Source: Bacillota bacterium
Lineage (GTDB): Bacteria > Bacillota > UBA4882 > UBA10575
Assembly (NCBI GenBank): GCA_036678685.1
Contig: JAZIHH010000001.1
Coordinates: forward strand, 81,614-145,613
Length of the DNA: 64,000 nt
Reading direction: 5' to 3'
Shown here: piece by piece, positions 6,765 through 49,481 of the stretch
Numbering within the stretch: the first letter of the stretch is position 1
Layout: every line of letters starts with the position of its first letter
The notes under the pieces: generated by a model
Database searches by the model: none
What the model was told of the DNA's origin: nothing
The model's input: only the letters and a program-made list of their open reading frames with translations
Translations under genes and position numbers: made by a program

Positions 6765-8624
6765 CTAGAAGTAGTAAGGCGGGTAAGGAACAACCACCTG
6801 TACCTGGAGTTGCTGGGCTTCGGTGAGTTTGACGAATAACTCCAGCACCACCTTTTGCCGGAGCGTCGTGGAATCCAAGAGCTCAAAGAGGATAGTTTCT
6901 ATTTCCGGCTTGATCCGCACATCCATACCGGGGACGGCCCCGGGAATATCCACAAAGGTGCTGAACGGAACATCTTCACTTTGGTGAATTTCCAAATTGT
7001 TTTCATTGATGAAGAAGATCTGTTTGTGGACAATACCCTGAATAATGATCTTGTCTTCGATTACTTCCGCCATTAACCGTTCCACCCTGGCGACGATTTC
7101 TCTGATTTTAACCGCCGGCTGGGTAAGGGCAAGGGTGCTTTCAATCAGCAGTTGCGAGGTTTGTTCTCCGACCATGGTATCGAGTTTTAAAAGGGCTCCC
7201 GGTCCAAGGGCCACGTTAATCTGGACGCTCTCCGTAACTTTGACAAAAAATTCGACGACAATCTTTTGCAACACCGTCTTTTCATCCAAAAGTTCAAAAT
7301 GGATAAATTCAATGGTTGGTTCGGTTACAACGTCCATTCCCGGTTCCGCTCCGGGAATATCCACAAAGGTACTGAACTCCACCTCTTCTTCCTGGTGAAA
7401 CTCGACATTGTCATGGCCGATAAAGAAAATCTGCTTGTGTAAGACTCCCTGAAGGACAATTTTATCTTCCAGAACCTCTACGGTCAAATCAATGATCTCC
7501 GCGGTAATATCGTCGATTTTTACCGCAGGTACATGAAGTGTGACCATGTTTTCAATTAACTCCTGTTTGGTGGCTTCGCCAATCACCTGATCAACACGGA
7601 CCAGCGGACCGGTTCCTTCCAGAATATTGATTTGTGTGGGTTCCGTTACCTTAACAAAAAATTCGATAACTACTTTCTGATGAAGCAAGGTCGGGGTCAA
7701 CAGGGTAAACAGGATGGTCTCCACCGTGGGATGGATCTGAACATTCATACCGGGTTCGGCCCCAAAAACATCGGCAAAAGTGCTGAAAGGTACTTCCTCG
7801 GTTTGGTGATGAACAATATTGTCCTCGCCGACAAAAAACACCTGCTTATGCAGCAGACCCTGGATAATAACCTTATCCATAATTAACTCGCTGGTTAAGT
7901 CACGAATCTCCGCGGTAATATTCCTGATTTTAATCGCCGGTTTAGCCAGGGTGACATTGGTTTCAACCAGCAATTGTTTGGTTGCTTCGCCGATCACCAC
8001 CTCAGCCCGCACCAAAGGATCCATTAAGATCTCTCCTCCTTTCCTTGATTCTTCATTACCGGCCTTGCCGGATTCTCTCTTTTCTATGGCCGGTGCCACC
8101 GGGGTATCCAGCGGGCACAGACTTTCCGGAAAGCCGGTTTCCTGTTCTTCGCCGGGATCAACTCTCACCTCTTTTTCTTTCCTTTTTTTGGCCGGGGGTT
8201 CTTTTTCCGCCTTGTTCACCCCGGTTTTTTCCTCTCCCGCCGGCCGCTTTTCTTCTGCCGGTTCCCTTCGTTTTTCCACCAGCGGAGCAAGCCCGGGGCC
8301 GGGTAACGATCCGGTTGGAAGATGGTCTTCCCTCTCTTGCCTCCCCTCCCCTGTCCGTTTTGGAGGATCCCTACCGCCGGGTCCGGTGGTCGTCCGCTGA
8401 ATTAGCGCTTTTTTTTTAGTTTCGGCCGCGCTCTCCCGGATTTCTTCCGGCGGACCGGCCGTCTCTCCAGGCTCAACGTATGTCGGGGATATGATCTGTA
8501 CGGCTCTGGTTTTATGAAGGGAATACAACCAGAAGGTACTGAGCGCCAGCAGAGCAAGGAAGATTACTAACGCCAAAACCCCTGTATTTCCACAAAAATT
8601 CCCCCTTTGCCGCCGCCGGGTCAT
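6765..8624 (-). CDS. membrane-anchored protein with a P/E/K-rich linker and three DUF3794/SPOCS-like repeats
   Basis: 619 aa. It has an N-terminal TM helix (GVLALVIFLALLALSTFWLYSL), a low-complexity region at residues ~45-205, then three ~130-aa repeats of the type VIGEATKQ...DKVIIQG.LHKQ.FF...PFSTF.D.PGAEPGM. Confidence 0.75.
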   Translation of the reverse strand: MTRRRQRGNFCGNTGVLALVIFLALLALSTFWLYSLHKTRAVQIISPTYVEPGETAGPPEEIRESAAETKKKALIQRTTTGPGGRDPPKRTGEGRQEREDHLPTGSLPGPGLAPLVEKRREPAEEKRPAGEEKTGVNKAEKEPPAKKRKEKEVRVDPGEEQETGFPESLCPLDTPVAPAIEKRESGKAGNEESRKGGEILMDPLVRAEVVIGEATKQLLVETNVTLAKPAIKIRNITAEIRDLTSELIMDKVIIQGLLHKQVFFVGEDNIVHHQTEEVPFSTFADVFGAEPGMNVQIHPTVETILFTLLTPTLLHQKVVIEFFVKVTEPTQINILEGTGPLVRVDQVIGEATKQELIENMVTLHVPAVKIDDITAEIIDLTVEVLEDKIVLQGVLHKQIFFIGHDNVEFHQEEEVEFSTFVDIPGAEPGMDVVTEPTIEFIHFELLDEKTVLQKIVVEFFVKVTESVQINVALGPGALLKLDTMVGEQTSQLLIESTLALTQPAVKIREIVARVERLMAEVIEDKIIIQGIVHKQIFFINENNLEIHQSEDVPFSTFVDIPGAVPGMDVRIKPEIETILFELLDSTTLRQKVVLELFVKLTEAQQLQVQVVVPYPPYYF

Positions 8625-8740
8625 GAACCCGGGTCAACCGGTTTGGCAAGATGCCAAAAGAAAAATTTGGGACGGTCCTGGTTGCTAATATAATATATGA
8701 ATTGGTCCCCGCTTGTGCTCATGTGGACAGAGGTCATAAT

Positions 8741-8762
8741 AAAAAAAGGACCTTGCGGTCCT
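8741..8762 (-). terminator. intrinsic terminator after the upstream repeat-protein gene
   Basis: On the minus strand, AGGACC-GCAA-GGTCCT is followed by T7, 6 nt after the stop at 8769. Confidence 0.7.
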
Positions 8763-8768
8763 TGCAAC

Positions 8769-11213
8769 TCAGAAACGTACCGGTTCAAAAACGACATTGG
8801 TAACCACTTCCACCGGCACGGGTTCGGGAATACCGTCATCCACCACATCCAAAGAAACCACTGCTTTGTCCACCCGGAGGATTCCCGGCCCGGAGACATC
8901 GGTGACGACAAAGATCTCTTCCACCACCACCCCGGTCTCCCGCAGAACCGGCGCTCTGACCAGAATACGCTCGGTGACAATGCCCGGACCGGTTACATTG
9001 GTTACCACATCGAAAGGTTCAGGAGCGGACTCTTCACCCCGGACTTCGACCTGAAGGACAATAAGCTGCCGGAGGAAGCGGCCGTCGGGCGACAAGGCGA
9101 AGGAGATATTTTCGATCTCCACTTCAACACTGATAGGCGTATCCGGGACCAGACCGGGTACGTTCACCAAAACCGAGAAGGGAACATTTTCGGTCACCGC
9201 CCGGACCACGTTCTCCCGGTTGACGAAGAAGACCTGCTTGTGAACGAATCCTTCCACCAGAACCTTGTCGTTTGCGATAATGCGTGCCCTCAGATCAATG
9301 ATTTCGCCGCGTACTTCCCGGATTTTTATAGCTTTTTCCGGTAATTCCACCACATTTTCCACGATGATCTGCTGCCGGCCCACGACAACCGCGCCCGGGG
9401 GTACAATGCGGACCACCTCAACGGCCCGTACGATCTCCGGGATTTCTTCCACTTTCTCGACCAGCAGTTGCCGTATGCCCTCGCCGATAACCTGTTCCAG
9501 CTTGAAGAGGGAAAAGTCCCCGGTAACCAGTGGGATCTGAATGGTCTCGGTTACTACCACCCGGGCCTGGAGAATCACTTTTTGTTCCAGGATCCGCTCG
9601 TCAAGCAACTTAAAGAGGATCTGTTCGATCAGGATTTTCACCTTGGCGTTCAAGCCCGGGGCGGCTCCCGGGATGTCAATAAACAAGCTGAAGGGAATTT
9701 CCTCCAATTGGTGGCGTTCTATGTTATCCGTGCTGATAAAGAAGATTTGTTTATGCAAAATTCCCTGGATGATTACTTTATCCGGGATCACCTGGGCGCT
9801 TACATTCCTTACTTCACCCACAATCTCCCGGACTTTGAGCGCCGGCCTTTCCAGTTCGAGCAGGGATTCCTTTAACAACTGTTCCTGTCCCTCGCCGATC
9901 ACTTGTTCCACTTTGAACAAGGGACCGTCGCCCGTCCGGACATGTTCCTGAATAACCTCCGTAACCTTCACAAAAACTTCGATAATTACTTTTTCTCTTA
10001 CTTCCTCCGGTGACAGGAGTTCAAAGAAGATCTTTTCAATAACCGGATGCACCTGAACTTCCATTCCCGGTTCGGCGCCGGGAACATCCAGAAACAGACT
10101 AAAGGGAATCTCCTCTTCCTGGTGACGGGCGAGATTACGCCGGTCGACGAAAAAGATCTGTTTGTGGATAATGCCTTGGACAATTACTTTATCCGGAATA
10201 ATCTCCACCTGGAGATCCCGTAACTCGCCCCGGATTTCATCGACTTTTTCCGCCGGCGTATCCAGGACGACGATATTTTCCACCAAATGTTGTTTGGTTG
10301 CCTCGCCGATGACCGCCGGAAGCAGCAGCAGCGGACCTTCACCCATTTCCAAACCGGTCTGTATAAACTGGGTGACCTTGATAAATATTTCCAGAATTAT
10401 TTTCTGGCTCACCGACCGCCCGTCGTCGGCCAGGCGGAATAGGATTTTCTCAACTACCGGATGGACCTGTACGTTCATTCCCGGTTCCGCACCGGGAATT
10501 TCGATAAATGTACTGAAGGGAATATCCTCTGCCAAGTGCCGGATTACCCCGTCGGTTCCGACAAAGAAGACCTGCTTATGCAGGATACCCTGGACAATAA
10601 CTTTATCCGGAATAATTTCCGTGGTGATATCCCTAATCTCGCCGGTAATATTTCGTATTTTCACCGTCGGCACCGGCAGCCGGGTAACAGGGACAGCCGG
10701 CTCAACCCGGGTCCTCGCCTCGCCCACCTGCACCCGGGCGCCCCGCAAGTCCCTGACTACCCCGGGAGGATCTTCTTCTATTTCATCGGCAGCAGAACCG
10801 TTCATCGTAATCTTCACCACGTTGGGATTGTAGTCCCCGGCAAAATCCGGTTCTGTTGTTTCCCGTTCCGGTGAAGGCTCTTCTTCTTTCACCCGGACCT
10901 GAACTCTTGTGGGGAGTACAATGTTTTTTTCCGCCTCGCCAATTTCCCGGTCCTCTTCCCCCTCCAGTTCTTCCTTCTTTTTTCGCTCTTTTTTAACCGG
11001 CCCGCTCGTACTGTCATCGCCCGCCCGGCCGGATTCGCCGCTCTTTTTTCTGTTTTTCCTTTTCTTCTTTTTCCCGTTGTTCTCTTTCACCAGTTCCTGG
11101 CCGTCTTCAGGGGGTTTTATCTCTTCTTGTACCGTCCGGTTTACCGGGGTCTCTTTTACTTCATCGTCGCCGGGGTTTTGTTGCTGTCTCTCATCCCGTT
11201 CTTCGAATTCCAT
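8769..11213 (-). CDS. highly charged protein with four DUF3794/SPOCS-like repeats and a C-terminal mini-repeat tail
   Basis: ORF 8769..11285 trimmed to the ATG at 11213 (MEFEERDE...), which has an AGGAGGA RBS. About 160 aa of K/E-rich N-terminus are followed by four ~130-aa repeats homologous to those of gene 6765..8624. Confidence 0.75.
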   Translation of the reverse strand: MEFEERDERQQQNPGDDEVKETPVNRTVQEEIKPPEDGQELVKENNGKKKKRKNRKKSGESGRAGDDSTSGPVKKERKKKEELEGEEDREIGEAEKNIVLPTRVQVRVKEEEPSPERETTEPDFAGDYNPNVVKITMNGSAADEIEEDPPGVVRDLRGARVQVGEARTRVEPAVPVTRLPVPTVKIRNITGEIRDITTEIIPDKVIVQGILHKQVFFVGTDGVIRHLAEDIPFSTFIEIPGAEPGMNVQVHPVVEKILFRLADDGRSVSQKIILEIFIKVTQFIQTGLEMGEGPLLLLPAVIGEATKQHLVENIVVLDTPAEKVDEIRGELRDLQVEIIPDKVIVQGIIHKQIFFVDRRNLARHQEEEIPFSLFLDVPGAEPGMEVQVHPVIEKIFFELLSPEEVREKVIIEVFVKVTEVIQEHVRTGDGPLFKVEQVIGEGQEQLLKESLLELERPALKVREIVGEVRNVSAQVIPDKVIIQGILHKQIFFISTDNIERHQLEEIPFSLFIDIPGAAPGLNAKVKILIEQILFKLLDERILEQKVILQARVVVTETIQIPLVTGDFSLFKLEQVIGEGIRQLLVEKVEEIPEIVRAVEVVRIVPPGAVVVGRQQIIVENVVELPEKAIKIREVRGEIIDLRARIIANDKVLVEGFVHKQVFFVNRENVVRAVTENVPFSVLVNVPGLVPDTPISVEVEIENISFALSPDGRFLRQLIVLQVEVRGEESAPEPFDVVTNVTGPGIVTERILVRAPVLRETGVVVEEIFVVTDVSGPGILRVDKAVVSLDVVDDGIPEPVPVEVVTNVVFEPVRF

Positions 11214-11374
11214 GAAGGCGTCCTCCTTTCTCCAACCAGTTTTCCAGCCTTCCTGCTGGTAACCGCACCAGATCTGGATGGACATCCAGACTAGTACATT
11301 ATATGCCGGTGGGGAAGGAGGTGCTTATGGTCGAAAAACTCCCGCCGGAATTGCTTACAACAAAAACGTCAAAA

Positions 11375-11446: not shown

Positions 11447-12184
11447 TTATCTACCCACAAATAATTGGGTGAACATATTGCCATAAGGTCCGCCGGAGAC
11501 GATTCCCACCCCAAGGTAATTGAACCTTGGGTTCAGGATATTGGCCCGATGGCCGGAACTGGCCATCAGATTGGCATGGGCCGCTTCGACGGTGGCAGCC
11601 CCGGCCAGGTTTTCACCGGCAGTGGAATACCTGATTCCGGCCTCCCGCATCATGTCAAAGGGTGAGCCGTAGGTTGGTGAATTATGACCGAAGTAGTTGC
11701 GGTCGATCATGTCCTGACTTTTTTTCCTGGCCAGTTCCACCAGGGACATGTCCACCCTCAACTGCTGTAAACCAGCCTTCGATCTTTCCTGGTTCACCAA
11801 GTTCACCATCTTCTGCTCGGCGGCGGTCAGGTTGCCGGACGGAGCAGGAGAAGGAGATGGTGGATTGTTGGCAACCGGAGGTTTGGGTTCCGGTACCGGA
11901 GCACTTGGTTGCTGCGGTATAATGATGCGATAGTAATTGCCTTGGCTGGTAGAATTATACTTTGTCGAGTAGTACGTCGAGTAGTTCGATGACTGGTAGA
12001 TTTTTACGTTGCTCCGTACGGTGCAGTACGTGCTTCCAGCACCAGAAGTGCGATAACAGGGGTTGACACCACCTGAGAAATAGTATACACCGGCTGTAGC
12101 TGGAAGAAGTACCGTAAAGACTAGAAGGACGGAGACAATGATACTACCAAGGAAACGGGCACGTAATGAAAGAAACCCGGACAT
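11447..12184 (-). CDS. secreted CAP/SCP-domain protein (YkwD-like)
   Basis: Trimmed to the ATG at 12184 with a GGAGAG RBS. It has a signal/TM segment, an S/Y/N/P-rich linker and a C-terminal CAP domain (NLVNQERSKAGL...GHNSPTYGSPFDMM...SSGHRANIL). Confidence 0.8.
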   Translation of the reverse strand: MSGFLSLRARFLGSIIVSVLLVFTVLLPATAGVYYFSGGVNPCYRTSGAGSTYCTVRSNVKIYQSSNYSTYYSTKYNSTSQGNYYRIIIPQQPSAPVPEPKPPVANNPPSPSPAPSGNLTAAEQKMVNLVNQERSKAGLQQLRVDMSLVELARKKSQDMIDRNYFGHNSPTYGSPFDMMREAGIRYSTAGENLAGAATVEAAHANLMASSGHRANILNPRFNYLGVGIVSGGPYGNMFTQLFVGR

Positions 12185-12354
12185 CGAATACTCTCCTTTC
12201 AGTACTGCCCTTTCCGGTGAAAGAGTTGCGGCAACGATTTCTTCATTGTCTGGAGAAACCGGTGGTTGTCCGCCCTGCACCTCCTTTTCAAGACAAAGCC
12301 GCAACCACTTCGGTTATTATTTTAATTCACTTCCCGGGGGAAAAACCCTTTATG

Positions 12355-12479: not shown

Positions 12480-12725
12480 TCAAATTTCGTCCAGTTTAAT
12501 GATCCCCTCTTTTAAAGCAAAGAGGGCAATTTCGGTCCGGTTCTTTAGTTCCAGTTTTTTACGGATGCTGGTTACATAATTTTTGGCCGTTTTTTCACTG
12601 ATGAAGAGAAGTTTTCCGATTTCCCGGTTGTCTTTACCGGCGGCCACCAGAGGCAGGATCTCTTGTTCTCTGGGGCTTAATCGTTCAAGGAGACCGGGTC
12701 GATGAATGTTCGGTGACTGAGCCAT
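12480..12725 (-). CDS. single-domain LuxR/GerE-family HTH transcription regulator
   Basis: Trimmed to the ATG at 12725 with an AGGAGGA RBS. The 81-aa protein contains LSPREQEILPLVAAGKDNREIGKLLFISEKTAKNYVTSIRKKL. Size and architecture resemble GerE. Confidence 0.75.
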   Translation of the reverse strand: MAQSPNIHRPGLLERLSPREQEILPLVAAGKDNREIGKLLFISEKTAKNYVTSIRKKLELKNRTEIALFALKEGIIKLDEI

Positions 12726-12859
12726 CTGCCCATCCTCCTCTCCAGCCGTCCTTCCGGAATTCCGGCGGGACGGATTAATCTGGTACATGATATGACAAGC
12801 CGGAAAAAGAGGTGAAGGAAGATGGAGGGTGGACGGGAAGTACCGGCCGTCCTCCCGGT

Positions 12860-14653
12860 TTACCGGGACTCTATGGCATTAAACGGGCATTTTTCCATAC
12901 ACAACCCGCATTTTGTACATCTTTCCTGGTCAATGGTATACGGCTCCCGCCGTTCGCCGCTAATCGCCTGTACCGGACAGACACGGGCACAAAGGCCGCA
13001 GCCTTTGCATAACTCCGGAATAATCCGGTACTGTTTAAGAGCGCGGCAGACCCCGGCCGGGCATCTCTTTTCTTTAATATGCGCCTCATATTCGTCACGG
13101 AAGTTTTGCAAAGTGCTTAACACCGGATTCGGCGCCGATTGACCCAGCCCGCAGAGGGAAGAGGAACTAATCACCCGGGCCAGCTCTTCCAGGGTCGCAA
13201 GATCCCCTTCTTCTCCCTTCCCTTCGGTAATCCGGGTCAGAATTTCCAGCATGTGTTTGGTACCGACCCGGCAGGGTGTACACTTGCCGCAGGATTCATC
13301 CTGGGTAAACTCAAGAAAGAAACGGGCCACATCGACCATGCAGGTGTCTTCATCCATGACGATCAGCCCGCCGGAACCCATGATCGACCCGGCATTTTGC
13401 AAGGATTCGTAATCGACCGGCAAGTCCAAATGTTTTTCGGTCAGGCATCCGCCGGAGGGTCCGCCGGTTTGCGCGGCTTTAAATTTTTTCCCGTTGGGAA
13501 TGCCGCCGGCCAGATCAAAAATAATCTCCCTCAGGGTTGTTCCCATCGGCACTTCCAACAAACCGGTATTGTTGATATTGCCGGCGATGGCAAAGACCTT
13601 TGTCCCCTTGCTTTTTTCCGTCCCGATCCTGGCAAACCACGCGGCGCCCTTGAGGATAATCACCGGGATATTGGCATAAGTCTCCACGTTATTAAGCAAA
13701 GTAGGTTTTCCCCACAGACCCTGCACCGCCGGGAAAGGCGGCCGGGGCCTGGGTTCGCCCCTCTTCCCCTCAATCGACGCCAAAAGGGCCGTCTCTTCCC
13801 CGCAAACAAAAGCACCGGCACCGACCCGGATATCCAAATCAAAGGAGAAACCGGTGTTCAAGATGTTTTTTCCCAAAAGACCATACTCCCGGGCTTTCTC
13901 AATGGCCTGTTGCAGTCTGCTGACCGCCAGGGGATATTCGGCCCGCACGTAAACATATCCTTGCCCGGCACCCACCGCATAACCGGCAATGGTCATGGCC
14001 TCAATAATCGAATGCGGGTCTCCTTCAAGAATACTCCGGTCCATGAAGGCTCCGGGGTCACCCTCGTCGGCATTACAAACCACATATTTCTCGTCGCCCG
14101 GGGCTTTCTGGGTGAACTCCCACTTCAAACCGGTCGGGAAACCCGCACCCCCCCGGCCGCGCAGGCCGGAGTCTTTAATCTCCCGGATCACCTCTTCCGG
14201 AGTCATTTCGGTCAATGCTTTCCCCAGGGCAAAATAACCGTCCCTGGCAATATACTCCTCTATGGACTCGGGATTGATTAGTCCCACATTACGCAGGGCG
14301 ATCCGTACCTGGCGACGGAAAAAGTCAATGTCGCGGTAGGACAAAACCGGCGCGGACGAAAGAGGGGAACGGTAAATTTTCCTCTCCACATACCTCCCTT
14401 TAAGTAGGTGTTCTTCAACAATCTCGCGGACATCATCGGGAGATACGTGCTGGTAAAAAACGCCTTCCGGATAGATGATCACGATGGGACCCAAATCACA
14501 GGTGCCAACACATCCTGTTTCAATAACGCGGATTTCCTCTTCTAAACCGTGTTCTTTCAGTTGGCGAATGAATTCTTCCTTTACAGCCCGGCAACCTGAT
14601 GAAATACACCCGGCGCCTCCGCAAACCAAAACATGTGCGCGAAATATTTTCAT
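12860..14653 (-). CDS. NuoF-like NAD(P)H/FMN flavoprotein subunit (HydB/HndC type) with a C-terminal 2x[4Fe-4S] ferredoxin domain
   Basis: ATG at 14653 ([13 protein letters not shown]...). It has an N-terminal thioredoxin-like 2Fe-2S domain, [23 protein letters not shown], and two C-terminal CxxCxxCxxxCP motifs. Confidence 0.9.
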
Positions 14654-14664
14654 CTTGGCTTCCC

Positions 14665-15216
14665 TCACAATTCATGTTCTAAAAATTCCGCCAGTTCTTT
14701 TTTTACCTCCCGGCGCAGGTAGTTCAGTACCACCGGATTGGTGATGTCAACTTCTTCCAAAACCCTTTTTATTTCCCGCGTGTCAAGCTTGTACTCCTTG
14801 CCGTTTCGCCGGTGATGGTAGATAAAATCCACTTCCGGATTGCCGGCAATTAGCGTCAGGAGTGTCTCCGCCATATCTCCCAGCGGGGGCCTGTCCCAGT
14901 GCCGGAGACCAAAAACCGCGCTGATCCGGGTTCCCCCTCCGGAGACCGGCTCCACCACCAGGTGCCCTCCGGTCCGGCAGGCGGCGGCCTGGAATAGCGG
15001 GAGCCCGAGTCCCACCCGCCTGGTGGTACGGGTGGTGTAGAAAGGATCAAGGACCTTTTGTCTGTCGGCCGCAGGAATTCCTTTTCCGTTGTCTTTAATT
15101 TCCACTTGCAACAGGTCTTTCTCCGCTTGCTCGACAATGCTGATCTCCACCAACCGCGCCCCGGCCCGTAACGAATTTTGTACCAAGTCCAAGATATGGA
15201 GGGAAAGATCCTTCAT
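14665..15216 (-). CDS. stand-alone GHKL/HATPase_c domain protein (no DHp or His phospho-acceptor domain)
   Basis: 183 aa with an N-box [14 protein letters not shown]1 DNGKGI and G2 GLGLPL. It is wedged between the NuoE-like and NuoF-like genes. Confidence 0.75.
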
Positions 15217-15272
15217 TTTCCTGTCTCCGCCCGTGGTTTGTACTAATTTTCACAAACACCGGCCGAAAAAAA

Positions 15273-15764
15273 TCATTTGTAACGTGCCAAAATTTCGGGG
15301 ATTTTGTCCGGCGTCAACCGGCCGTAAACATCATCCCCGATGGTAATCACCGGGGCCAGTCCGCAGGCGCCCACGCAACGGGTGGTGTCCAGGGTAAAAA
15401 GACCGTCACGCGTGGTATTGCCGTCCGTAAGGTTCAAGGTTTCCTTAATCTTGTCTAAAATCGCGGACGCGCCTTTAACGTAACAGGCCGTCCCCAAACA
15501 GACACCGATCGTATATTTACCTCGCGGTTCCTGGGAGAAAAAGGAATAAAAAGTAATCACCCCGTAGACTTCACTCAAGGGAATGCCCAACCCTTCCGCG
15601 ATTCTCACCTGTACGTCCCGGGGCAAATGGCCAAAGAGCAATTGCGCCCGGTGGAGCACGGGGATTAAAGCGCCCGGCTTCCCTTTGTATTCTTGCAACA
15701 GGTTGTCAAGTTCGCGGTATTTATCTTCATGGCAACATCCCCGGCAAGCAACTTCTGTCATCAC
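15273..15764 (-). CDS. NuoE-like [2Fe-2S] subunit (HydC/HndA type)
   Basis: 163 aa containing ...GKYTIGVCLGTACYVKG...TTRCVGACGLAPV... Confidence 0.9.
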   Translation of the reverse strand: MMTEVACRGCCHEDKYRELDNLLQEYKGKPGALIPVLHRAQLLFGHLPRDVQVRIAEGLGIPLSEVYGVITFYSFFSQEPRGKYTIGVCLGTACYVKGASAILDKIKETLNLTDGNTTRDGLFTLDTTRCVGACGLAPVITIGDDVYGRLTPDKIPEILARYK

Positions 15765-15862
15765 CTTTGCCTCCTTACTTTTCTATACCGCTCCCAACTT
15801 AGATTATCACTTTTCACTGTTTGTTACAATTAAACTACGGTCATTACTTTGTTAGAAAATTG

Positions 15863-16570
15863 TTAAGGAACCGGGAGTAGTGACAACAACTGGTCCCAGC
15901 AGGCGGCTTCGAGGTTAAATACGGTTCTTCCGCGGCCGATTTCCTCGGGACGATGGGCATCCGACGAACAGATAAAACAATAGCCCGGAAACTTCGCTTG
16001 CAGTTCTGTTCCGTCGTCACCGGCGGAAATCTCCAGCACTTTCCGGGGAAAGCAAGCCGGCAGCATACCCAGTTGGGAGAGGAGACTAAAGGAAGGGCGC
16101 ATGATATGGGCGGGATAAACCAGACCGCCCAGGGCCGCGACTTGGGCCACCACTTCCTCCAAGGAAAATGCGGTAGAGTTTAAGAGCAGGATTTTCTCTT
16201 CACCGATACAATTTCCTTCTTCATCCACCAGCATTTGTTGGCCGAAGTACTCCGGGCGGTTGACTACCGGCGGCAAACTCTTTTTAACCATCTCCCCCCA
16301 AGCCATGGCCGGTTCCAGCGCGGGAAAGAGACAAACCAGATGAACCTCTTCCCTGGTCTGTACTTCCATCCCGGGAATAACCCACAGATCCGGCGGGGGA
16401 GACGATAAAAAAGCCGGCAGGTTTCCCGTACTGTTATGATCGGTGATGGCAATGATTTTCAAGCCGGCTTCCCGGGCCCGGGAAAATATCCGGGGCGGGT
16501 CCATTTCCCTCTCGGCGCACGGGGAAAGGGCGGTATGGATATGAAGGTCGGCCGGAAAAAACGGACTCAT
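15863..16570 (-). CDS. PHP-domain metal-dependent phosphoesterase
   Basis: 235 aa with ADLHIHTALSPCA and ITDHNS, which are PHP metal-ligand motifs. Its start overlaps the upstream stop by 4 nt. Confidence 0.75.
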   Translation of the reverse strand: MSPFFPADLHIHTALSPCAEREMDPPRIFSRAREAGLKIIAITDHNSTGNLPAFLSSPPPDLWVIPGMEVQTREEVHLVCLFPALEPAMAWGEMVKKSLPPVVNRPEYFGQQMLVDEEGNCIGEEKILLLNSTAFSLEEVVAQVAALGGLVYPAHIMRPSFSLLSQLGMLPACFPRKVLEISAGDDGTELQAKFPGYCFICSSDAHRPEEIGRGRTVFNLEAACWDQLLSLLPVP

Positions 16571-16911
16571 TTTCCTTCCTCTAATAACGCCCGGTAGAGG
16601 CGGCCGGCAGTCTCAAAGGTCGGCAAGGAAGTAGCCAGCAAGACAATGCCTTCCGCCCGCGCCCGTTCCACGGTGGAAGGATCGGGCGTACTCCCGGCGG
16701 TAAATAAAACAGCGGCCAAATTTAACAGCAAAGCTACGGCCGCTACGTTGGTGTGGGTCTGAATGGTCAACCAGACCTGCCCTTCTTCCGCATGCCCCAT
16801 GACGTCGCTGAGTAAATCGGAAACATATACTCCCCGGCAGACCCGGTCCATTTTATCTTCACCGGTAATAACCCGGGCGGCGGTTATTTCCACTACTTTT
16901 TGTAAATTCAC
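16567..16911 (-). CDS. DRTGG-like domain protein
   Basis: 114 aa, paralogous to gene 18712..19080. I recall this family accompanying hydrogenase regulatory clusters. It overlaps both neighbours by 4 nt. Confidence 0.55.
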   Translation of the reverse strand: MNLQKVVEITAARVITGEDKMDRVCRGVYVSDLLSDVMGHAEEGQVWLTIQTHTNVAAVALLLNLAAVLFTAGSTPDPSTVERARAEGIVLLATSLPTFETAGRLYRALLEEGK

Positions 16912-18263
16912 TTTTTTCCCTCCTTCTCCGTTTCCGGTCTCAAAGTCTGCGGCCGTTTTTGCGAAAAAATCAGTAACTTACGGGCCAACTCCTCCAGTTC
17001 CTCCCGCAAAATGAAGATACAGTCGGATAACTGGGCATTACCCTGGACAATATCTTCGGCCAAAGAACGACAGGTGGGAGAACCGCAGGCGCCGCAATCC
17101 AGCCCCGGCAGTTGGGTCATTAATTGGCCAATCTTCTCCATTTTCCGGATCGCCACACTTAAATCTTTATCCAGCTGCAAGGCGGGCCGGGCCGTCAATT
17201 CTTCCGTCCAGTAGAAAAAAGACTGCGGGTATAGTGTCCGGCCCAAAGCCGAAACCTCCGCCGGTAACTTCTTGTCGCCGGCCGCTTCCGCCAGTTTCCT
17301 GATTTTCACCCGGGCGACAAAAGGATTTTCCACGGTCAACGCTCCGCCCACACACCCTTCCTGGCAAGCCATGGCCTCAATATAATCGATATCGTTGAGC
17401 TTGTCCATTTCTATTTCTTCCAGAAGGGCGGCCACATTATGGATCCCGTCAACCGACAAGGCATTTTCCCATTTGACCGCGACACTCTCCCCTCCCGCCC
17501 GGGCCCAACCAATGCCCACCCCGGTACTTTTGGGCTCCACCTTTGCCTTTTCCCCGGTTTCCACTTGCTCCTGCAGCTTCCCGTAGAGAGAAACAAAGGG
17601 AAGAGCGCCGTCCACCCGGTAATCCTGTTGCACAGCGGTTTTAATCTCTGTGATCTTGGCCGGACAGGGGGTAATAAAAAATAAACCCACCTCTTCCGGG
17701 GGAAACTCCAGCTCGGGCAGGCGGTTACGGTAAAAAAGCTTCGCGGCGGTGACATACGGTGGATCAATGGGAATGATATGGGGAATCAAGCCCGGGAACC
17801 GGACCTGGATGAGGCGGACCACCGCCGGGCAGGAAGAAGAGATCAGAGGCAGGTTTCTCCGGCCGTTCCCCGCCGTATACTCTTTCAAGTACTCCCGTAC
17901 CGCATAGGTCGTCAACTCCGCCGCCGCCGCCACTTCATAGACTTCATCAAAGCCGATCCGGAGAAGCGCCGCCAAAACCTGGCGGGGGAGCACCCCTTTT
18001 TTAAATTGCCCGTAAAGACTGGGGGCGGGAAGCGCCACCCGGTAACGGAATTTTTTCAAGTCATCAAGCGTATCACTAAGCGCTTTCTTGGCGTGATGTT
18101 CACAGGTGCGAATGCATTCACCGCAATCGATACAACGCTCCGTTAAAATTACCGCTTTTCCTCCCCGCACCCTTATGGCCTCGGTGGGGCAGTTCTTAAT
18201 ACAATTGGTGCACCCCTGACATTTTTCTTCGGCTAGAACCACCGAATGGTACCTGGTCTCCAC
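16908..18263 (-). CDS. sensory-type [FeFe]-hydrogenase homologue (HydS-like): 2x[4Fe-4S], degenerate H-domain, C-terminal CX2CX4CX16C Fe-S domain
   Basis: 451 aa with CQGCTNCIKNCP and CIDCGECIRTCE. H-cluster-like motifs are SSSCPAVV, ITPCPAKITE and EAMACQEGCVGG. The C-terminal motif is LDCGACGSPTCRSLAEDIVQGNAQLSDC. Confidence 0.75.
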   Translation of the reverse strand: METRYHSVVLAEEKCQGCTNCIKNCPTEAIRVRGGKAVILTERCIDCGECIRTCEHHAKKALSDTLDDLKKFRYRVALPAPSLYGQFKKGVLPRQVLAALLRIGFDEVYEVAAAAELTTYAVREYLKEYTAGNGRRNLPLISSSCPAVVRLIQVRFPGLIPHIIPIDPPYVTAAKLFYRNRLPELEFPPEEVGLFFITPCPAKITEIKTAVQQDYRVDGALPFVSLYGKLQEQVETGEKAKVEPKSTGVGIGWARAGGESVAVKWENALSVDGIHNVAALLEEIEMDKLNDIDYIEAMACQEGCVGGALTVENPFVARVKIRKLAEAAGDKKLPAEVSALGRTLYPQSFFYWTEELTARPALQLDKDLSVAIRKMEKIGQLMTQLPGLDCGACGSPTCRSLAEDIVQGNAQLSDCIFILREELEELARKLLIFSQKRPQTLRPETEKEGKK

Positions 18264-18278
18264 CTTATCACCCCATGG

Positions 18279-18707
18279 TTATTTATTCAAAAACCGCATA
18301 ACCACCCTGGTGCCAAGATTTTTTTCGGATTCGATTATTATCTCGTCCGTGCATTTTTTCATGTTCGGCAAACCCATTCCGGCGCCGAATCCCATCTCCC
18401 TGGCCAAATCGGAAGCAGTGGAAAAGCCTTCTTGCATCGCCTGCTCGATATCGTCAATCCCCGGTCCTTCGTCTTCGGCGATGACCCGTATTTCGCCCTC
18501 TTCCACCTGAAGAACCAAACGCCCGCGGCGGGCGTGAAGAACAATGTTCATCTCCGCCTCGTAAGAAGCAATGGAAACCCGCCGGATCACGGCGGCGTCG
18601 ATCCCCAGTTGTCTTAAGGTTTTCTTTATTTTGCTCGCCGCTTCGCCGGCGGCGATGAAATCGCCGCCGGTCACCGGAAAATCCAAAGACATCCTGGGGG
18701 CCGACAT
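18279..18707 (-). CDS. RsbW/SpoIIAB-like anti-sigma-type serine kinase (HATPase_c)
   Basis: 142 aa with ...IAEDEGPGIDDIEQAMQEGFST...GFGAGMGLPNMKK... Confidence 0.75.
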   Translation of the reverse strand: MSAPRMSLDFPVTGGDFIAAGEAASKIKKTLRQLGIDAAVIRRVSIASYEAEMNIVLHARRGRLVLQVEEGEIRVIAEDEGPGIDDIEQAMQEGFSTASDLAREMGFGAGMGLPNMKKCTDEIIIESEKNLGTRVVMRFLNK

Positions 18708-18711
18708 CTTT

Positions 18712-19080
18712 TCACCTCCCGGTCAAACTCAAGCCGCTACAACCTTTCAACCCGGCCATGTACAAGAGGCCGCAGGTTTCATAAAGCGGTAACACGGTCG
18801 ACAAGAGGGGAAGATTGTTTTTCCGGGCCATCTCAATTACCTCCGGAGGGGGTTTCTTCCCGCGGACAAAAACGACGGCGCTGAGATCGATCATATCGGC
18901 GGTGCGAATGACCTGTGAATTGGTTAAGCCGGTCAATAAAAGGGTTTTTTCCTTGGTAAAAGTCAAGACGTCGCTCATCAAATCCGAACCGCAGACACAA
19001 CGCGGTTCGATCTGGTCCAAAACCTCTTCTCCCACTAAAACTTCGGCATTTAAAATTTTTTGTATTTCCCGTAAGTTCAT
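18712..19080 (-). CDS. DRTGG-like domain protein
   Basis: ORF 18712..19110 trimmed to the ATG at 19080 (MNLREIQKIL...), which has a GAGGTG RBS. It contains CGSDLMSDVL...LLLTGLTNSQVIRTA. Confidence 0.55.
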   Translation of the reverse strand: MNLREIQKILNAEVLVGEEVLDQIEPRCVCGSDLMSDVLTFTKEKTLLLTGLTNSQVIRTADMIDLSAVVFVRGKKPPPEVIEMARKNNLPLLSTVLPLYETCGLLYMAGLKGCSGLSLTGR

Positions 19081-19239
19081 GAAAGAAAACACCTCATTTT
19101 TTATTCCCATGCTTCCGGCTGTTTAAAAAACTGCCGTCGTTGGCAAAAAGTATTTATAAAAAAATAATACGACAATTCTCCGTTGATATCCTGCTCCACA
19201 GAGAACTGCCGTATAATATTTTGTTACTTAAGTAAAGGC

Positions 19240-19905: not shown

Positions 19906-21237
19906 TTATTCGTCTTTCTCCTTTAGGTCTTTATCCTTTAATCGTTTAATTCTCGCCCCCAGTTTACCCAGTTTTTCTTCGATCTTCTCATAACCGCGGT
20001 CCAACAATTGGACATCTTCCACAATGGTCCTTCCTTTGGCCGCCAACCCGGCCAAAACCATGGCCGCTCCCGCCCGCAGGTCCGGGGCCACCACCGTGGC
20101 CCCGGTAAAGCCGGGTACACCCTTCACAATGGCGCTTCTTCCTTCCACCCTGATATTGGCGCCCATCCGGATTAATTCGTCAACATAACGGAAACGGCCG
20201 CTGAAAACGTTCTCCGTCAAGACGCTGGTCCCTTCCGCCAAGGAAAGAGTGGCCGCCATCTGCGGTTGCAGATCGGTGGGAAAACCCGGATAGGGCAGGA
20301 CAGTAACGTCCACCGCCCGCAACCGGCGCGGAGCTTTGACCCGGATCCTGTCTTCATCGGCCTCAACCTCCACCCCGGCCTCTTTCAGTTTGGCCATGAG
20401 CGACTCCAGATGTTCGGGGATAATATCTTTTAAGGTAATTTCTCCTCCGGAAATTACCGCCCCCAAAATATAGGTTCCCGCCTCAATCCGGTCCGGGATT
20501 ACCGTATAATCGATGGGGACGGAACGCAAGGATTTAACTCCCTCAATGCGGATCATATCCGTTCCGGCCCCGCGGATCCGGGCGCCCAGCCGGTTATAGA
20601 AGTTTTGTTCTTCGATAATCTCGGGTTCCTTGGCGGCATTACGGATCACGGTGGTTCCCTTAGCCAGGATCGCGGCGGCCATTATATTTTCTGTCGCCCC
20701 TACGCTGGGGAAATCCAGGTGGATGTCGGCGCCGGTTAATTCCCCGGCCCGGACATAGATGTAGCCGTGTTCTTCCACTACTTCCGCGCCCAGCATCTGA
20801 AAACCCTTCAAATGAAGATCAATGGGTCGTTGTCCGATAACGCAACCCCCGGGTTGAAACAGTTTCACCTTTTTGCTCCGGGAAAGTAAAGGGCCCATCA
20901 CCTGAACCGAAGCTCTCATCTTGCGGACCAGGTCATCGGGGGCGGAATAACCCAGGTCGTCATGGGGTTTAATCCTCAGGACCGCTTCGTCCGCCCAGGA
21001 GACTTCCGCGCCCAGGCTGCGCAATACTTCTATCATAGTCAAGACATCTTTAATCAGGGGAACATTTCTGATGATGCATTCATTCCGGGTTAAAAGCGCG
21101 GCGGCCATTAACTTTAAGACGGCATTCTTCGCCCCGCTGATTGATACTTCGCCCGCAAGAGGATAGCCACCATCGATCTGCAAGCGTTCCACCGGCGTCA
21201 CCTCCAAAGCCACTGGCAGGATAGGTATTTTCTTCAT
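19906..21237 (-). CDS. murA: UDP-N-acetylglucosamine 1-carboxyvinyltransferase
   Basis: 443 aa with ISGAKNA and other full-length MurA features. Confidence 0.95.
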   Translation of the reverse strand: MKKIPILPVALEVTPVERLQIDGGYPLAGEVSISGAKNAVLKLMAAALLTRNECIIRNVPLIKDVLTMIEVLRSLGAEVSWADEAVLRIKPHDDLGYSAPDDLVRKMRASVQVMGPLLSRSKKVKLFQPGGCVIGQRPIDLHLKGFQMLGAEVVEEHGYIYVRAGELTGADIHLDFPSVGATENIMAAAILAKGTTVIRNAAKEPEIIEEQNFYNRLGARIRGAGTDMIRIEGVKSLRSVPIDYTVIPDRIEAGTYILGAVISGGEITLKDIIPEHLESLMAKLKEAGVEVEADEDRIRVKAPRRLRAVDVTVLPYPGFPTDLQPQMAATLSLAEGTSVLTENVFSGRFRYVDELIRMGANIRVEGRSAIVKGVPGFTGATVVAPDLRAGAAMVLAGLAAKGRTIVEDVQLLDRGYEKIEEKLGKLGARIKRLKDKDLKEKDE

Positions 21238-21308
21238 TCTCCGGAGACAGTAGATATTCTATGCAATAACCGGGCTTTATGACAATAAGCCTGTCCAAAA
21301 AAGGAATT

Positions 21309-22409
21309 TCAAATCGTCCCTCCCGCCGCTTTGGAGATATTGAGCAAGATCCCGATGGAAATAAGGGTAATCCATAGTGATGAACCCCCGGCGCTTATCA
21401 ACGGCAGGGTAATTCCGGTGGCGGGTACGGTGGAGGTTACCACGGCAATATTAATCAACGCCTGGACAATCAACCACGAGGTTATTCCCACCGCCAGCAG
21501 GCTGCCGTAATGATCCCGCACCGACAAGGCGATTTTATAACCGCGCCAGGCGAGAAGGAAAAAGAGGAATAAAATGGTCAGGCTCCCGATTAAGCCAAGT
21601 TCCTCGCCGATAATGGCAAAAATGTAATCCGAATGGGGTTCCGGGAGGTAAAAAAACTTTTGTCTGCTTCGCCCCAGGCCGACACCGAAAAGGCCTCCGG
21701 AACCCAAAGCCATTAAACCCTGGATGATTTGCCACCCGTCCCCTTTCGGGTCGGCCATGGGGTCAAGGAAGGTAAGCAGCCGCCGCAGACGGTACGGTTC
21801 CTGAAAAATCAGGGCCAAGCCCGCCCCGGCGCAGACCAGTCCCACCAGGGACAGATGAAACAGGCGCGCCCCGGCGGTAAAAAGCATGATAAAGAAGATG
21901 CTGAAAACAACTACCGTCGTACCAAGATCGGGTTCCAAGATAATTAAACCCCCGATGACCAGGGTATAAAAGAAGGGCAGCAAAATTCCGGTGGCGAAGT
22001 TTTTCACTTCGGAGCCGATTTCCGAGAGGTAATGGGCTAAGACAAAGATCAGGCCCAGTTTGGCGAATTCGGAGGGTTGTATGGTCAAAAACCCCAGGTC
22101 AATCCAGCGCCGCACCCCGTGAATCGCTTCCCCGGCGTAAAGAACGGCAATCAGGAAGACCGGCGACAGGATGGCAAAGAGAGTTGTCAATTTACGCAAG
22201 CGGCGGTAGTCAATCTTGCTGGTGCCGATTAAGAGCATAATCCCCAACAAGGCGTAGACTGCCTGACGTTTCCCGTAAAAAAACGGATCCTTGCCGTCGG
22301 TTACACTCAGAGCCCTGGGCGCACTGGCGCTGGTCACCAGAATAACCCCTAAAATAACCAGAAAAAGAGTGCTTAAAAAGAGAAAATGATCCGGGCCTTG
22401 TTTTTTCAC
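21309..22409 (-). CDS. SEDS-family peptidoglycan polymerase FtsW/SpoVE
   Basis: 366 aa, 10-TM SEDS protein located in the dcw cluster. Confidence 0.9.
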   Translation of the reverse strand: MKKQGPDHFLFLSTLFLVILGVILVTSASAPRALSVTDGKDPFFYGKRQAVYALLGIMLLIGTSKIDYRRLRKLTTLFAILSPVFLIAVLYAGEAIHGVRRWIDLGFLTIQPSEFAKLGLIFVLAHYLSEIGSEVKNFATGILLPFFYTLVIGGLIILEPDLGTTVVVFSIFFIMLFTAGARLFHLSLVGLVCAGAGLALIFQEPYRLRRLLTFLDPMADPKGDGWQIIQGLMALGSGGLFGVGLGRSRQKFFYLPEPHSDYIFAIIGEELGLIGSLTILFLFFLLAWRGYKIALSVRDHYGSLLAVGITSWLIVQALINIAVVTSTVPATGITLPLISAGGSSLWITLISIGILLNISKAAGGTI

Positions 22410-22426
22410 CCTACCTCACCCCGGTT

Positions 22427-23404
22427 TTATAATTTATAACCGGCCAGCCCCAAAAGGGCCAGCAGGGCGCCGATGAGCCAAAACCTGACCACAATCTTGC
22501 TTTCAACCATACCGCCCAGTTCATAATGGTGATGCAACGGGCTCATCCGGAAAACCCTCTTCCCGGTTAAACGAAAAGAAATCACTTGAATGATCACAGA
22601 GAGGACTTCGGCCACAAAAATCCCCCCGACGACCAGCAGGAAAAGAGCGGTCCCGGAAAGAATGCCCATTGTCCCCAAGGCCGCTCCCAGGGCCAGCGAA
22701 CCGGTATCGCCCATAAACACTTGGGCCGGGGGGCAATTAAACCAGATAAAGCCGGCGCAGGCACCGACGAGGGCCGCGGCAAAAATCCCCAAATCGGGAT
22801 ACCCGGCCAGAACGGCCAAAACACCCATGGCCAAACCGGTGGTGACACAACTCCCGGCGGCCAGGCCGTCAAGGCCGTCCGTGAAATTGACGGCATTGGA
22901 GGTGCCGACCACCACGAAAATAACAAAGAACAGGGTGGTCAGGGGGTGCACAAAAGGCAGGTACCAAGAGAAAAAAGGGACCTGCAGGGTATCCATAATC
23001 CCCGCGCGGATGACATAAACAGCGAGCAGGCCGGCGAAAAAAATCTGGAACAGCAACTTGTACCGGGCTTTCAACCCCAGCGGGCGGCGGTGGATAATAA
23101 TCAACAGGTCGTCAAGGAAACCGATTAAGCCGTAAGAGAAAGTAAGAAAGAGGCACCACCGGACCGCCGGCGTCCACGGCCGGCCCATCCCGGCAAGGAT
23201 ACCGGCGGTCAAGCCGCCCAAAATCAGCACACCACCCATGGTGGGGGTTCCGGATTTACGCTGATGGGAACGGGGAGCGTCCGTCCGGACATTTTGCCCG
23301 GCCTTAATTGTTCTCAACAACCGGATGGTAAAGGGACCGGTGAAGACGACAAATAAAAAAGCAAGCAATCCCGCGGCCAGAAAATTAGTCCAGGGCACTC
23401 CCAT
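22427..23404 (-). CDS. mraY: phospho-N-acetylmuramoyl-pentapeptide transferase
   Basis: 325 aa with motifs KxGTPTMGG, NAVNFTDGLDGLA and HHHYE. Confidence 0.96.
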   Translation of the reverse strand: MGVPWTNFLAAGLLAFLFVVFTGPFTIRLLRTIKAGQNVRTDAPRSHQRKSGTPTMGGVLILGGLTAGILAGMGRPWTPAVRWCLFLTFSYGLIGFLDDLLIIIHRRPLGLKARYKLLFQIFFAGLLAVYVIRAGIMDTLQVPFFSWYLPFVHPLTTLFFVIFVVVGTSNAVNFTDGLDGLAAGSCVTTGLAMGVLAVLAGYPDLGIFAAALVGACAGFIWFNCPPAQVFMGDTGSLALGAALGTMGILSGTALFLLVVGGIFVAEVLSVIIQVISFRLTGKRVFRMSPLHHHYELGGMVESKIVVRFWLIGALLALLGLAGYKL

Positions 23405-26278: not shown

Positions 26279-26347
26279 TTTATAACCGGCGACGCTCCTG
26301 TCCCCCCTCCGGGCGCCAAATAATTTCCATCAAAGATTAAAAGCCGC

Positions 26348-49207: not shown

Positions 49208-49445
49208 ATAAAAAAAACTTTCATCCGGTAAGGGACGAAAGTTTCTTCCGCGGTACCACCCTTTTTAGCCTTTGAAGGCTCTCCTTAATAACACGAAACC
49301 GAAGCGTCTTCGGCTCGTCTCCGGTAACGGCGGAGTTCCGGCACAACCTACTGCCAGTTCAGTCGGCGGCTCCAGAGTGAACTTCTACCGGACCGGCGGG
49401 GAATGCTCGCACCTGGCCATTCCTCTCTGTACCGCTTAACCCGGT
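49208..49445 (-). promoter_or_regulatory. T-box riboswitch leader (Phe, UUC specifier) controlling pheST
   Basis: All on the minus strand. The T-box core AAAAAGGGTGGTACCGCG lies at 49250..49266. The terminator AAACTTTC-loop-GAAAGTTT plus T8 lies at 49210..49246. Stem I has AGAGAGG and a GGTGCGA distal loop. The specifier loop GAAG-TTC-A has its codon at 49379..49381. Confidence 0.85.
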
Positions 49446-49481
49446 ATACTCTCTCCTTCCTTGCCTTTGCTTTTTATGAAA

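Follow-up and report, generated by a model that had tools for sequence, protein, structure and literature searches.

A diaphorase-like gene pair that lies beside a putative sensory [FeFe]-hydrogenase, with no catalytic hydA after it, raises the question of whether the pair serves the sensor or a hydrogenase encoded elsewhere. This situation is found in a stretch of 64,000 nucleotides (nt) from a Bacillota bacterium (GCA_036678685.1, contig JAZIHH010000001.1, positions 81,614-145,613 of the forward strand), hereafter called the window. It carries locus 1, an operon combining the sensor HydS with NuoE1 and NuoF1, and locus 2, the operon of HydA2. The initial annotation of locus 1 had offered two possibilities, a complex of NuoE1/NuoF1 with HydS itself or a diaphorase pair working with the distant catalytic module, and our comparative data favor the latter. 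With a probability of roughly 60%, we read the two loci as a split HydABC(D), that is, a known bifurcating hydrogenase encoded at two loci and not a new sensor complex. HydC and HydB from locus 1 and HydA and the HydD-like Fd2 from locus 2 would then form one ordinary HydABC(D). From the comparisons below, we infer that HydA2 would physically assemble with NuoE1/NuoF1.

Genes were called from an open reading frame (ORF) listing and from Pfam/NCBIfam scans of the window proteins. Both bear out the description of locus 1 as eight co-oriented, partly overlapping genes without a catalytic hydA: the operon lies on the minus strand (12860-19080 or 12860-19110, according to the start of its first gene), and its genes overlap by 4 nt at three junctions (16908-16911, 16567-16570 and 14665-14668). 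NuoE1 (15273-15764, minus strand) is a thioredoxin-like [2Fe-2S] subunit corresponding to HydC/BfuC (PF01257, 2.7e-52), and NuoF1 (12860-14668, minus strand, 602 aa) is a full-length HydB/BfuB with an N-terminal 2Fe-2S domain, the FMN (PF01512), SLBB (PF10531) and NuoF 4Fe-4S (PF10589) domains, and a C-terminal 2x[4Fe-4S] domain (Fer4 x2). NuoF1 matches HydB of A. woodii (7Q4V_B) and of A. mobile (7T2R_B) over the full length, with 944-948 bits, the match to 7Q4V_B scoring 944. Together, the two proteins have the domains by which Schut et al. (2022) define the Bfu core, namely NuoF FMN, SLBB, NuoF 4Fe-4S and ferredoxin-type 4Fe-4S domains in BfuB and a NuoE domain in BfuC (PMC9304861), and no BfuA is encoded next to them. 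Cys/His columns at least 90% conserved in 35 hydA-linked HydB sequences were compared with seven hydA-less sequences, those of the window and of its relatives L001-L006 (L numbers denote the surveyed loci, described below). All seven keep 25 of the 25 columns, and of the positions invariant in hydA-linked HydB they keep 197 of 205. When the window is compared with L001, no operon protein is as well conserved as NuoF1, at 84% against 68-81% for the other seven, and NuoF1 branches are not elongated in the neighbor-joining (NJ) tree. Given this conservation and the normal branches, decay is ruled out and a change of role is disfavored. NuoE1 and NuoF1 are most likely HydC and HydB of an electron-bifurcating Bfu-type [FeFe]-hydrogenase.

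The two diaphorase genes are separated by a gene for a GHKL-only ATPase (HATP; 14665-15216, minus strand; PF02518, 2.3e-16). This 'hisK'-like gene is typical of hydABC operons, and its matches are restricted to histidine-kinase catalytic domains; the hisK of the A. mobile NiFe-HydABCSL operon lies outside the holoenzyme (PMC9304861, Fig. 1 legend). In Capillibacterium thermochitinicola (L081, 13065-13611), HATP consists of two overlapping ORFs of 138 and 70 aa, possibly due to a frameshift, a pseudogene or a sequencing error. Besides hydA, locus 1 lacks the small 2Fe-2S gene that usually separates the GHKL ATPase gene from that of NuoF.

How common this state is was assessed with a survey of loci. 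Starting from an alignment of 17 HydS homologues, 80 species-level loci with 10-kb flanks were collected, the best 80 of at least 589 matches and thus those most similar to the query, and annotated by blastp against the window proteins; 68 are informative and the other 12 are cut by contig ends. In 40 of the 68, including Thermoanaerobacterium sp. (L008), Tepidanaerobacter sp. (L017) and Acetivibrio mesophilus (L036), the sensor module is followed by the canonical NuoE1-HATP-Fd2-NuoF1-HydA, an order (NuoE, small 2Fe-2S, NuoF, HydA) that we take to be that of hndA-B-C-D with an inserted GHKL gene. Four of 68 loci have the short type attached directly, as PHP-HATP-Fd2-NuoE2-NuoF2-HydA, 11 of 68 hold the five-gene sensor module only, and 7 of 68 a short module of DRTGG, kinase and HydS only, so that NuoE1/NuoF1 are absent beside the sensor module in at least 22 of 68 (4 + 11 + 7). 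The remaining type, NuoE1-HATP-NuoF1 with neither Fd2 nor HydA, accounts for 6 of 68. When only the 46 loci with a complete NuoE..NuoF stretch and room downstream are considered, hydA lies directly after NuoF in 40, which agrees with the statement in the initial annotation that hydA usually follows this module, and both Fd2 and hydA are missing in six, all from one clade. These six loci (L001-L006) belong to the closest relatives of the window, and L001-L005 also share the GerE and CAP genes downstream; the cultured C. thermochitinicola (L081) has an arrangement identical to that of window locus 1. The hydA-less NuoF1 sequences form one clade (89% NJ bootstrap) nested in hydA-linked [FeFe] HydB, and their sisters, L014 and L021, carry hydA. 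We conclude that the hydA-less state is rare overall, lineage-specific, conserved and not an artefact.

Some surveyed loci depart from these types. The downstream genes are unrelated in the 9 checked of 18 module-only loci, apart from L057 (11407-13320), where the gene directly after HydS encodes a second hydrogenase-like protein, an MCP signaling fusion (Fe_hyd_lg_C + PF04060 + MCPsignal), so that two putative H2 sensors stand in tandem. In L025, L034, L041, L048, L063-L065 and L075, NuoF-like ORFs of 910-1083 aa (HydB plus an extra domain) precede hydA, often in a second hydrogenase operon beside the sensor module.

The only catalytic-type hydA of the window belongs, as first annotated, to an operon with its own NuoE/NuoF paralogues (52064-56439). 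This locus 2 lies 33 kb upstream of locus 1 on the same strand, in the order Fd2-NuoE2-NuoF2-HydA2. Its first gene, Fd2 (56074-56439, minus strand), encodes a small thioredoxin-like [2Fe-2S] protein of the HydD/HndB type and is the gene missing between HATP and NuoF1; it is presumably the counterpart of HndB in Desulfovibrio fructosovorans Hnd and of HydD in Caldanaerobacter (Thermoanaerobacter) tengcongensis HydABCD. NuoE2 (55571-56068, minus strand) is a second HydC paralogue by domain scan. NuoF2 (53850-55496, minus strand) is a HydB paralogue without the C-terminal 2x[4Fe-4S] domain, as seen in the column test and in an alignment with HydB. Its alignment with A. woodii HydB, of 599 residues, spans positions 1-541 of the latter, and NuoF2 retains the N-terminal [2Fe-2S] Cys and the H530/C536/C541 positions; the eight C-terminal Cys are missing and both C-terminal clusters are gone. 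HydA2 (52064-53812, minus strand; NF040763, 946 bits) is the catalytic-type subunit. Its best matches in the PDB are HydA1 of T. kivui (692 bits) and of A. woodii (685), compared with about 497 for the monomeric CpI; by this similarity, it is a multimeric-type HydA. The orthologues found in a search with HydA2 and used below are 77-84% identical to it, conservation across the clade amounts to 80-84%, and clade HydAs have identical H-cluster motifs and no acceleration, with or without NuoE2/NuoF2. Large ORFs of the window were also checked for other BfuA-type partners; they are dcw, PNPase, Opp, PheST, MatE and SipL-domain genes, and none is a candidate.

HydA2 (residues 292-298, window 52919-52939) and all 56 sampled HydA sequences (L007-L089) carry the motif TSCSPGW, with a Ser where the classical TSCCP motif has its second Cys, presumably the ligand Cys300 of CpI. 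A. woodii HydA1 (7Q4V_A) shares TSCSPGW and T. kivui HydA1 has TSCCP. Window-clade HydAs, except that of L089, have an extra Cys in L3 (EIMCCPGGC).

Locus 2 of the relatives supplies the central evidence for a split enzyme. In C. thermochitinicola, the two loci (L081 and L082) are found on one 107,682-bp contig, on the same strand and 25.1 kb apart, and in Hydrogenispora sp. DUQQ01 (L005 and L084) likewise on one contig and the same strand, 25.3 kb apart. In both genomes the syntenic locus 2, located between a beta-eliminating lyase gene and pheST, consists only of Fd2-HydA, with no NuoE/NuoF, and the Fd2 homologues, of 120 aa, are 63-66% identical to window Fd2. L083 and L088 also have Fd2-HydA without NuoE/NuoF; the window's order, Fd2-NuoE2-NuoF2-HydA, recurs in L085, L087 (from the same metagenome-assembled genome (MAG) as L002) and L089. 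In L089 (3318-4959), NuoF2 is split into ORFs of 406 and 133 aa, and a frameshift, a pseudogene or a sequencing error is possible. Because the two genes missing at locus 1, Fd2 and HydA, sit together at locus 2, the loci are exact complements in part of the clade: in the Capillibacterium type, they sum to a single copy each of HydA, HydB, HydC and HydD.

The phylogenies suggest how this state arose. A sister lineage has both sets in tandem, as NuoE1-HATP-Fd2-NuoF1-HydA-NuoE2-NuoF2-HydA, and clade HydAs are monophyletic (99% bootstrap in the HydA NJ tree, 100 bootstraps). In the simplest history, the window clade would have lost the NuoF1-adjacent HydA and kept the other HydA at a separate locus. 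Moreover, L004, L005 and Capillibacterium form a derived NuoF1 subclade (100% bootstrap), which points to a secondary loss of NuoE2/NuoF2 in this subclade, a loss checked for the L005 MAG and Capillibacterium. Such a loss would orphan HydA unless NuoE1/NuoF1 were already usable. The HydA lineage occurs with NuoE2/NuoF2 only (L011, L015, L022), with NuoE1/NuoF1 only (Capillibacterium) and with both (window, L087), a distribution over short, long and both modules that would be expected of interchangeable modules. Since the window holds one HydA and a second HydB/HydC pair, it may use two alternative diaphorase modules. We tentatively consider, as a minority possibility, that one HydA is shared by the full HydB1/HydC1 and the C-terminally truncated HydB2/HydC2. 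The full Bfu core would work with NADH and ferredoxin, bifurcating or confurcating, and the truncated module probably with NADH only.

A putative operator common to both loci also connects them. A position weight matrix (PWM) was trained on six non-window locus-2 sites, with 50 shuffles as a control. In the window, it finds a Rex-box-like operator, TTGTGAAATATAGAACAA, at 56464-56481, 25-42 nt upstream of Fd2 (23.8 bits), and another, TTGTGAAAATTAGTACAA, at 15238-15255 in the NuoE1-HATP spacer (22.5 bits). These sites rank first and second in the 64 kb, the shuffle maximum being 20.3 bits; a third match (31720-31737, 19.6 bits), within the PNPase ORF, is probably due to chance. The Rex consensus is an inverted repeat, TTGTGAA-N4-TTCACAA, upstream of redox and hydrogenase genes (PMC2883068), of which both window operators have a perfect left half, TTGTGAA, and three mismatches in the right half. 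The form TTGTGAAAnnnnGnACAA is common to the two loci, being found in the spacer of L001-L006 and L081 and upstream of Fd2/HydA in L082-L089. The spacer holds the top PWM match of the whole locus in L001-L006 and L081 and not in sister lineages, and the locus-2 operator, which follows a TTGACA-17-TATAAT promoter, is kept about 40 nt upstream of Fd2 in L082, L084, L085, L087, L088 and L089. Matches to the generic Rex consensus in the window are at chance level (3 versus 2.9 expected), and the sites are credible because of their position, conservation and PWM ranking, not their raw count. An operator common to both loci suggests that one DNA-binding protein, plausibly Rex as a candidate, probably controls both, which would be repressed and derepressed together by the NADH/NAD+ ratio.

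The five genes upstream of NuoE1 form the sensor module. HydS (16908-18263, minus strand, 451 aa) contains a 2x[4Fe-4S] region (Fer4, residues 8-61), Fe_hyd_lg_C (76-308) and a PF04060 FeS domain (385-417, 3.9e-15); no PAS domain was matched in the Pfam scan. Its motifs SSSCP, TPCPAK and AMACQEGC retain the four cluster-ligand Cys, and C144, C199, C299 and C303 are invariant among the 17 homologues. At the relay position C299 of CpI, HydS has a Ser (SSSCP), at the M353 position a Thr (ITPCPAK), and M497 is retained (AMAC). Group D enzymes are characterized by a non-conserved relay C299 and a Met353 replaced by Ser/Thr (Land 2020, PMC8163306), and by a C-terminal Cys4 [4Fe-4S] motif with no PAS (2026 TamHydS paper, PMC13104023). 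HydS has all of these sequence features, with the F-domain, the four ligand Cys, the C299/M353 changes and the C-terminal Cys4. The usual same-operon or downstream group A hydrogenase is not found, as only HydC/HydB follow; this association is frequent, not strict, since 18 of 68 informative loci have the module without such hydrogenase subunits downstream. Judged by its sequence, HydS is a bona fide putative sensor of Group D (M2e, TamHydS-type), in line with the initial annotation as a HydS-like sensory [FeFe]-hydrogenase homologue. The NuoG-like domains at the N-terminus (Fer2_4 + NADH-G_4Fe-4S_3), which mark the catalytic, HydB-binding (BfuA-type) subunit of HydABC enzymes and are both present in HydA2, are missing from HydS.

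Around HydS are arranged the components of a candidate phosphorylation relay. DRTGG1 (18712-19110, minus strand; PF07085, 1.4e-10), a candidate partner or substrate of the adjacent kinase, more likely starts at 19080, where a GAGGTG ribosome-binding site precedes the start also chosen in the initial annotation. An RsbW/SpoIIAB-like GHKL Ser/Thr kinase (HATPase_c_2; 18279-18707, minus strand; PF13581, with TIGR01925 below cutoff) comes next; HydS is followed by DRTGG2 (16567-16911, minus strand; PF07085, 2.5e-9) and by a PHP-family phosphoesterase (15863-16570, minus strand), a candidate relay phosphatase with PF13263 above the Pfam cut-off and PF02811 slightly under it (25.9 for a cut-off of 26.4). 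The Pfam/NCBIfam scan of the locus 1 operon detected no DNA-binding domain, STAS domain or sigma factor. DRTGG1 is fused N-terminally to the RsbW-like kinase in L008, L009, L010, L016 and L017 (around 9150-9970; 269-270 aa), which are loci of the Thermoanaerobacterium/Tepidanaerobacter type, and in the homologue P0070 (563 aa), HydS is fused to a DRTGG domain; these fusions are hints of physical interaction. TamHydS is reported to undergo an H2-induced conformational change (PMC13104023). By analogy, H2 at the H-cluster of HydS might shift its conformation, which could alter the HydS-DRTGG2 and kinase-DRTGG1 interactions and their phosphorylation state; the module would thereby exert its effect in trans, with the DRTGG proteins phosphorylated on Ser/Thr, the PHP protein would reverse this phosphorylation and reset the relay, and the output would bear in trans on hydrogenase expression or activity. 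That this signaling logic has yet to be worked out, as the initial annotation remarked, is in line with the literature, where the signaling and interaction partners of Group D enzymes are still called unidentified (PMC13104023, PMC8163306). Our literature search on DRTGG with hydrogenases found no study of this relay, and that on Hydrogenispora hydrogenases nothing relevant.

Several points weigh against a split HydABC(D). Clade HydAs group with HydAs adjacent to short NuoF2 (91%) and never (0%) with the NuoF1-adjacent HydA of L014/L021; because HydA2 thus belongs to the NuoF2-associated lineage, its pairing with NuoF1 would be a cross-lineage combination. A HydA of M3 architecture can in principle work alone with ferredoxin, as CpI does, and L086 has a HydA with neither Fd2 nor NuoE/F nearby. 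The operator of locus 1 is found after NuoE1, in the spacer before HATP, and not in front of NuoE1. The HydA and NuoF1 trees are of the NJ type only, the selection of the best 80 of at least 589 matches biases the frequencies towards relatives of the window, and the tally of hydA covers the window and the sampled loci, so that a further hydA or BfuA-type partner may exist elsewhere in the genome. The lineage of HydA2 and the confined tally would also suit a partner outside the window (hydA, formate dehydrogenase or Nfn-like) for NuoE1/NuoF1, with HydA2 working with NuoE2/NuoF2 only, or alone in relatives, and Schut et al. consider that BfuBC cores lacking BfuA may have it encoded elsewhere (PMC9304861). 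However, NuoF1 nests in the [FeFe] HydB clade with nearly all invariant positions retained, locus 2 of Capillibacterium and Hydrogenispora offers a multimeric-type HydA and a HydD, with no diaphorase, on the very contig of locus 1, and one operator is common to both loci; we regard such an outside partner as unlikely. A similar argument applies to the idea that NuoE1/NuoF1 have no BfuA at all, as a 'Type 4' Bfu-like core or a stand-alone NADH:ferredoxin oxidoreductase with a partner unrelated to HydA. BfuA-less BfuBC are a described class, clade 57, many of whose 47 members have no obvious third substrate (PMC9304861), but NuoF1 is, in the NJ tree, a secondary derivative of hydA-linked HydB and not a separate clade, GerE and the CAP-domain protein follow it in place of a substitute subunit such as rubrerythrin, and relatives have a complementary Fd2-HydA locus. 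This renders a core of that type still less likely.

A sensor complex in which NuoE1/NuoF1 bind HydS and integrate H2 with the NADH/ferredoxin redox state, one of the possibilities originally proposed, draws on the co-oriented, tightly packed genes (only 98 nt separate PHP from NuoE1), on the need of the N-terminal 2x[4Fe-4S] of HydS for some redox partner and on the Group D partners being unknown (PMC13104023). We nevertheless find it very unlikely: HydS does not have the NuoG-like domains of HydB-binding subunits, and the module stands alone so often that it has no need of NuoE/NuoF. In addition, the fusions join DRTGG to the kinase and HydS to DRTGG, never to NuoE/F, the sequence of NuoF1 shows no shift relative to hydA-linked HydB, and the second locus of the relatives provides exactly the missing HydD and HydA. 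Comparing the neighborhoods of HydS orthologues upheld the rarity of the hydA-less state and went against the sensor complex. As for a decaying hydABC remnant or an assembly artefact, hydA and Fd2 have indeed gone from the locus relative to the canonical order, yet the same arrangement recurs in the window and seven independent assemblies, including an isolate genome, and the ORFs are intact, with all cofactor ligands kept, 74-84% identity in the clade and branches of normal length. This explanation is extremely improbable, and decay of NuoE1/NuoF1 is effectively refuted by the column test.

The split HydABC(D) that we favor can be set against known systems. Like TamHydS-type Group D loci, locus 1 has the HydS architecture, an adjacent GHKL ATPase and HydC/HydB-type genes downstream (PMC8163306, PMC13104023). 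It differs in that neither hydA nor the small 2Fe-2S gene comes after HydB, both being 33 kb away, in the absence of an adjacent AraC-type regulator, and in M497, which is kept here and is a Leu in TamHydS. With HydABC of A. woodii, Thermoanaerobacter kivui and Thermotoga maritima (7Q4V, 8A6T, 7P5H), the window shares the full-length NuoF1 match, the HydC-like NuoE1 and HydA2, but its genes are at two loci and an extra truncated HydB/HydC stands beside HydA. Unlike in the HndABCD/HydABCD type, the HydD-like gene heads locus 2 and is missing from locus 1. Type 4 Bfu of clade 57 likewise have a BfuBC core and no BfuA in the cluster (PMC9304861), whereas NuoF1 nests among hydA-linked HydB, in a tree without clade-57 reference sequences, which argues against its membership, and the window has a multimeric-type HydA on the same replicon and no adjacent rubrerythrin or other substitute subunit. 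NuoF2 resembles the HydB of the non-bifurcating Syntrophomonas wolfei Hyd1ABC and Syntrophus aciditrophicus HydAB in lacking the C-terminal 2x[4Fe-4S] (Losey 2020, PMC7311640); non-bifurcating HydB homologues lack clusters B2-B5 (PMC9304861), but NuoF2 keeps the N-terminal [2Fe-2S] Cys and H530/C536/C541. Finally, as in RsbW/SpoIIAB partner switching, a small HATPase_c_2 kinase, a small putative substrate and a phosphatase gene share one operon; here, however, DRTGG proteins are the candidates in place of a STAS antagonist and sigma factor, and the phosphatase is of the PHP and not the PP2C type. BfuA-less cores and BfuA encoded elsewhere are already known (PMC9304861). Three things are new: a sensor-linked hydABC(D) operon is split throughout this lineage, in a conserved way; a HydD-HydA locus complements it; and the window's one HydA has a truncated BC pair beside it, while the full pair accompanies the sensor.

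The boundaries of locus 1 set it apart from its neighbors. At the 5' end, an intrinsic terminator of the upstream SPOR-domain gene (19157-19210, minus strand; -26.9 kcal/mol, z = -7.5, followed by a U-run) forms the operon boundary towards the upstream dcw/SPOR genes, and its inverted repeat is kept in L001-L005. The sensor module adjoins the dcw (mraZ/PBP/mur) cluster (window 19906-28456) in the window clade; the same adjacency in a distant Atrimonadaceae genome (L076, 12436-15888) may be a coincidence. Within the operon, the NuoE1-HATP spacer measures 56 nt. NuoF1 is followed, as initially described, by a gap, here of 71 nt, and by a GerE-type regulator (12480-12788), then by a CAP-domain protein (11447-12304); as these genes come directly after the gap, there is no room for hydA, whether intact or as a remnant. 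No convincing terminator structure was found after NuoF1 (z = -1.6), and read-through into gerE is possible. Downstream of gerE are two large adjacent SipL/SPOCS-domain paralogues (619 and 838 aa; window 6765-11285). Because SipL-domain genes follow and it is 82-86% conserved, we infer that gerE is a sporulation gene; its upstream region has an element, CATATCAT, that we take to be sigma-K-like. The gerE-SipL/SPOCS region (6765-11285, 12480-12816) thus holds sporulation genes probably unrelated to the hydrogenase operon. Near locus 2, a T-box leader (119.8 bits) precedes pheS and a tRNA-Val(GAC) gene lies between this locus and pheST (49228-49470 and 49768-49844, respectively). The spoIIAA/AB/sigF-like set that precedes locus 2 in relatives belongs to sporulation and forms an operon of its own.

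Identifying the interaction partners of Group D enzymes has been called critical (2026 TamHydS paper, PMC13104023), and this clade is a natural dissection of the question, with the sensor apart from the catalytic subunit yet linked to HydB/HydC. Among the sister genomes, some have a single diaphorase module, of either kind, and some have both; C. thermochitinicola is cultured. If NuoE1/NuoF1 and HydA2 simply belong to a split operon, 'orphan' HydBC/BfuBC in MAGs should be paired with 'orphan' multimeric-type HydA before new functions are proposed. If both modules are indeed used with one HydA, the cell could switch one and the same enzyme between ferredoxin-coupled (bifurcating/confurcating) and NADH-only operation. 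The thermodynamics of H2 production would then be tuned in a new way, and the HydB features that confer bifurcation could be tested directly, with single-module relatives as 'single-mode' controls; the sensor module could then bias which diaphorase is made or active.

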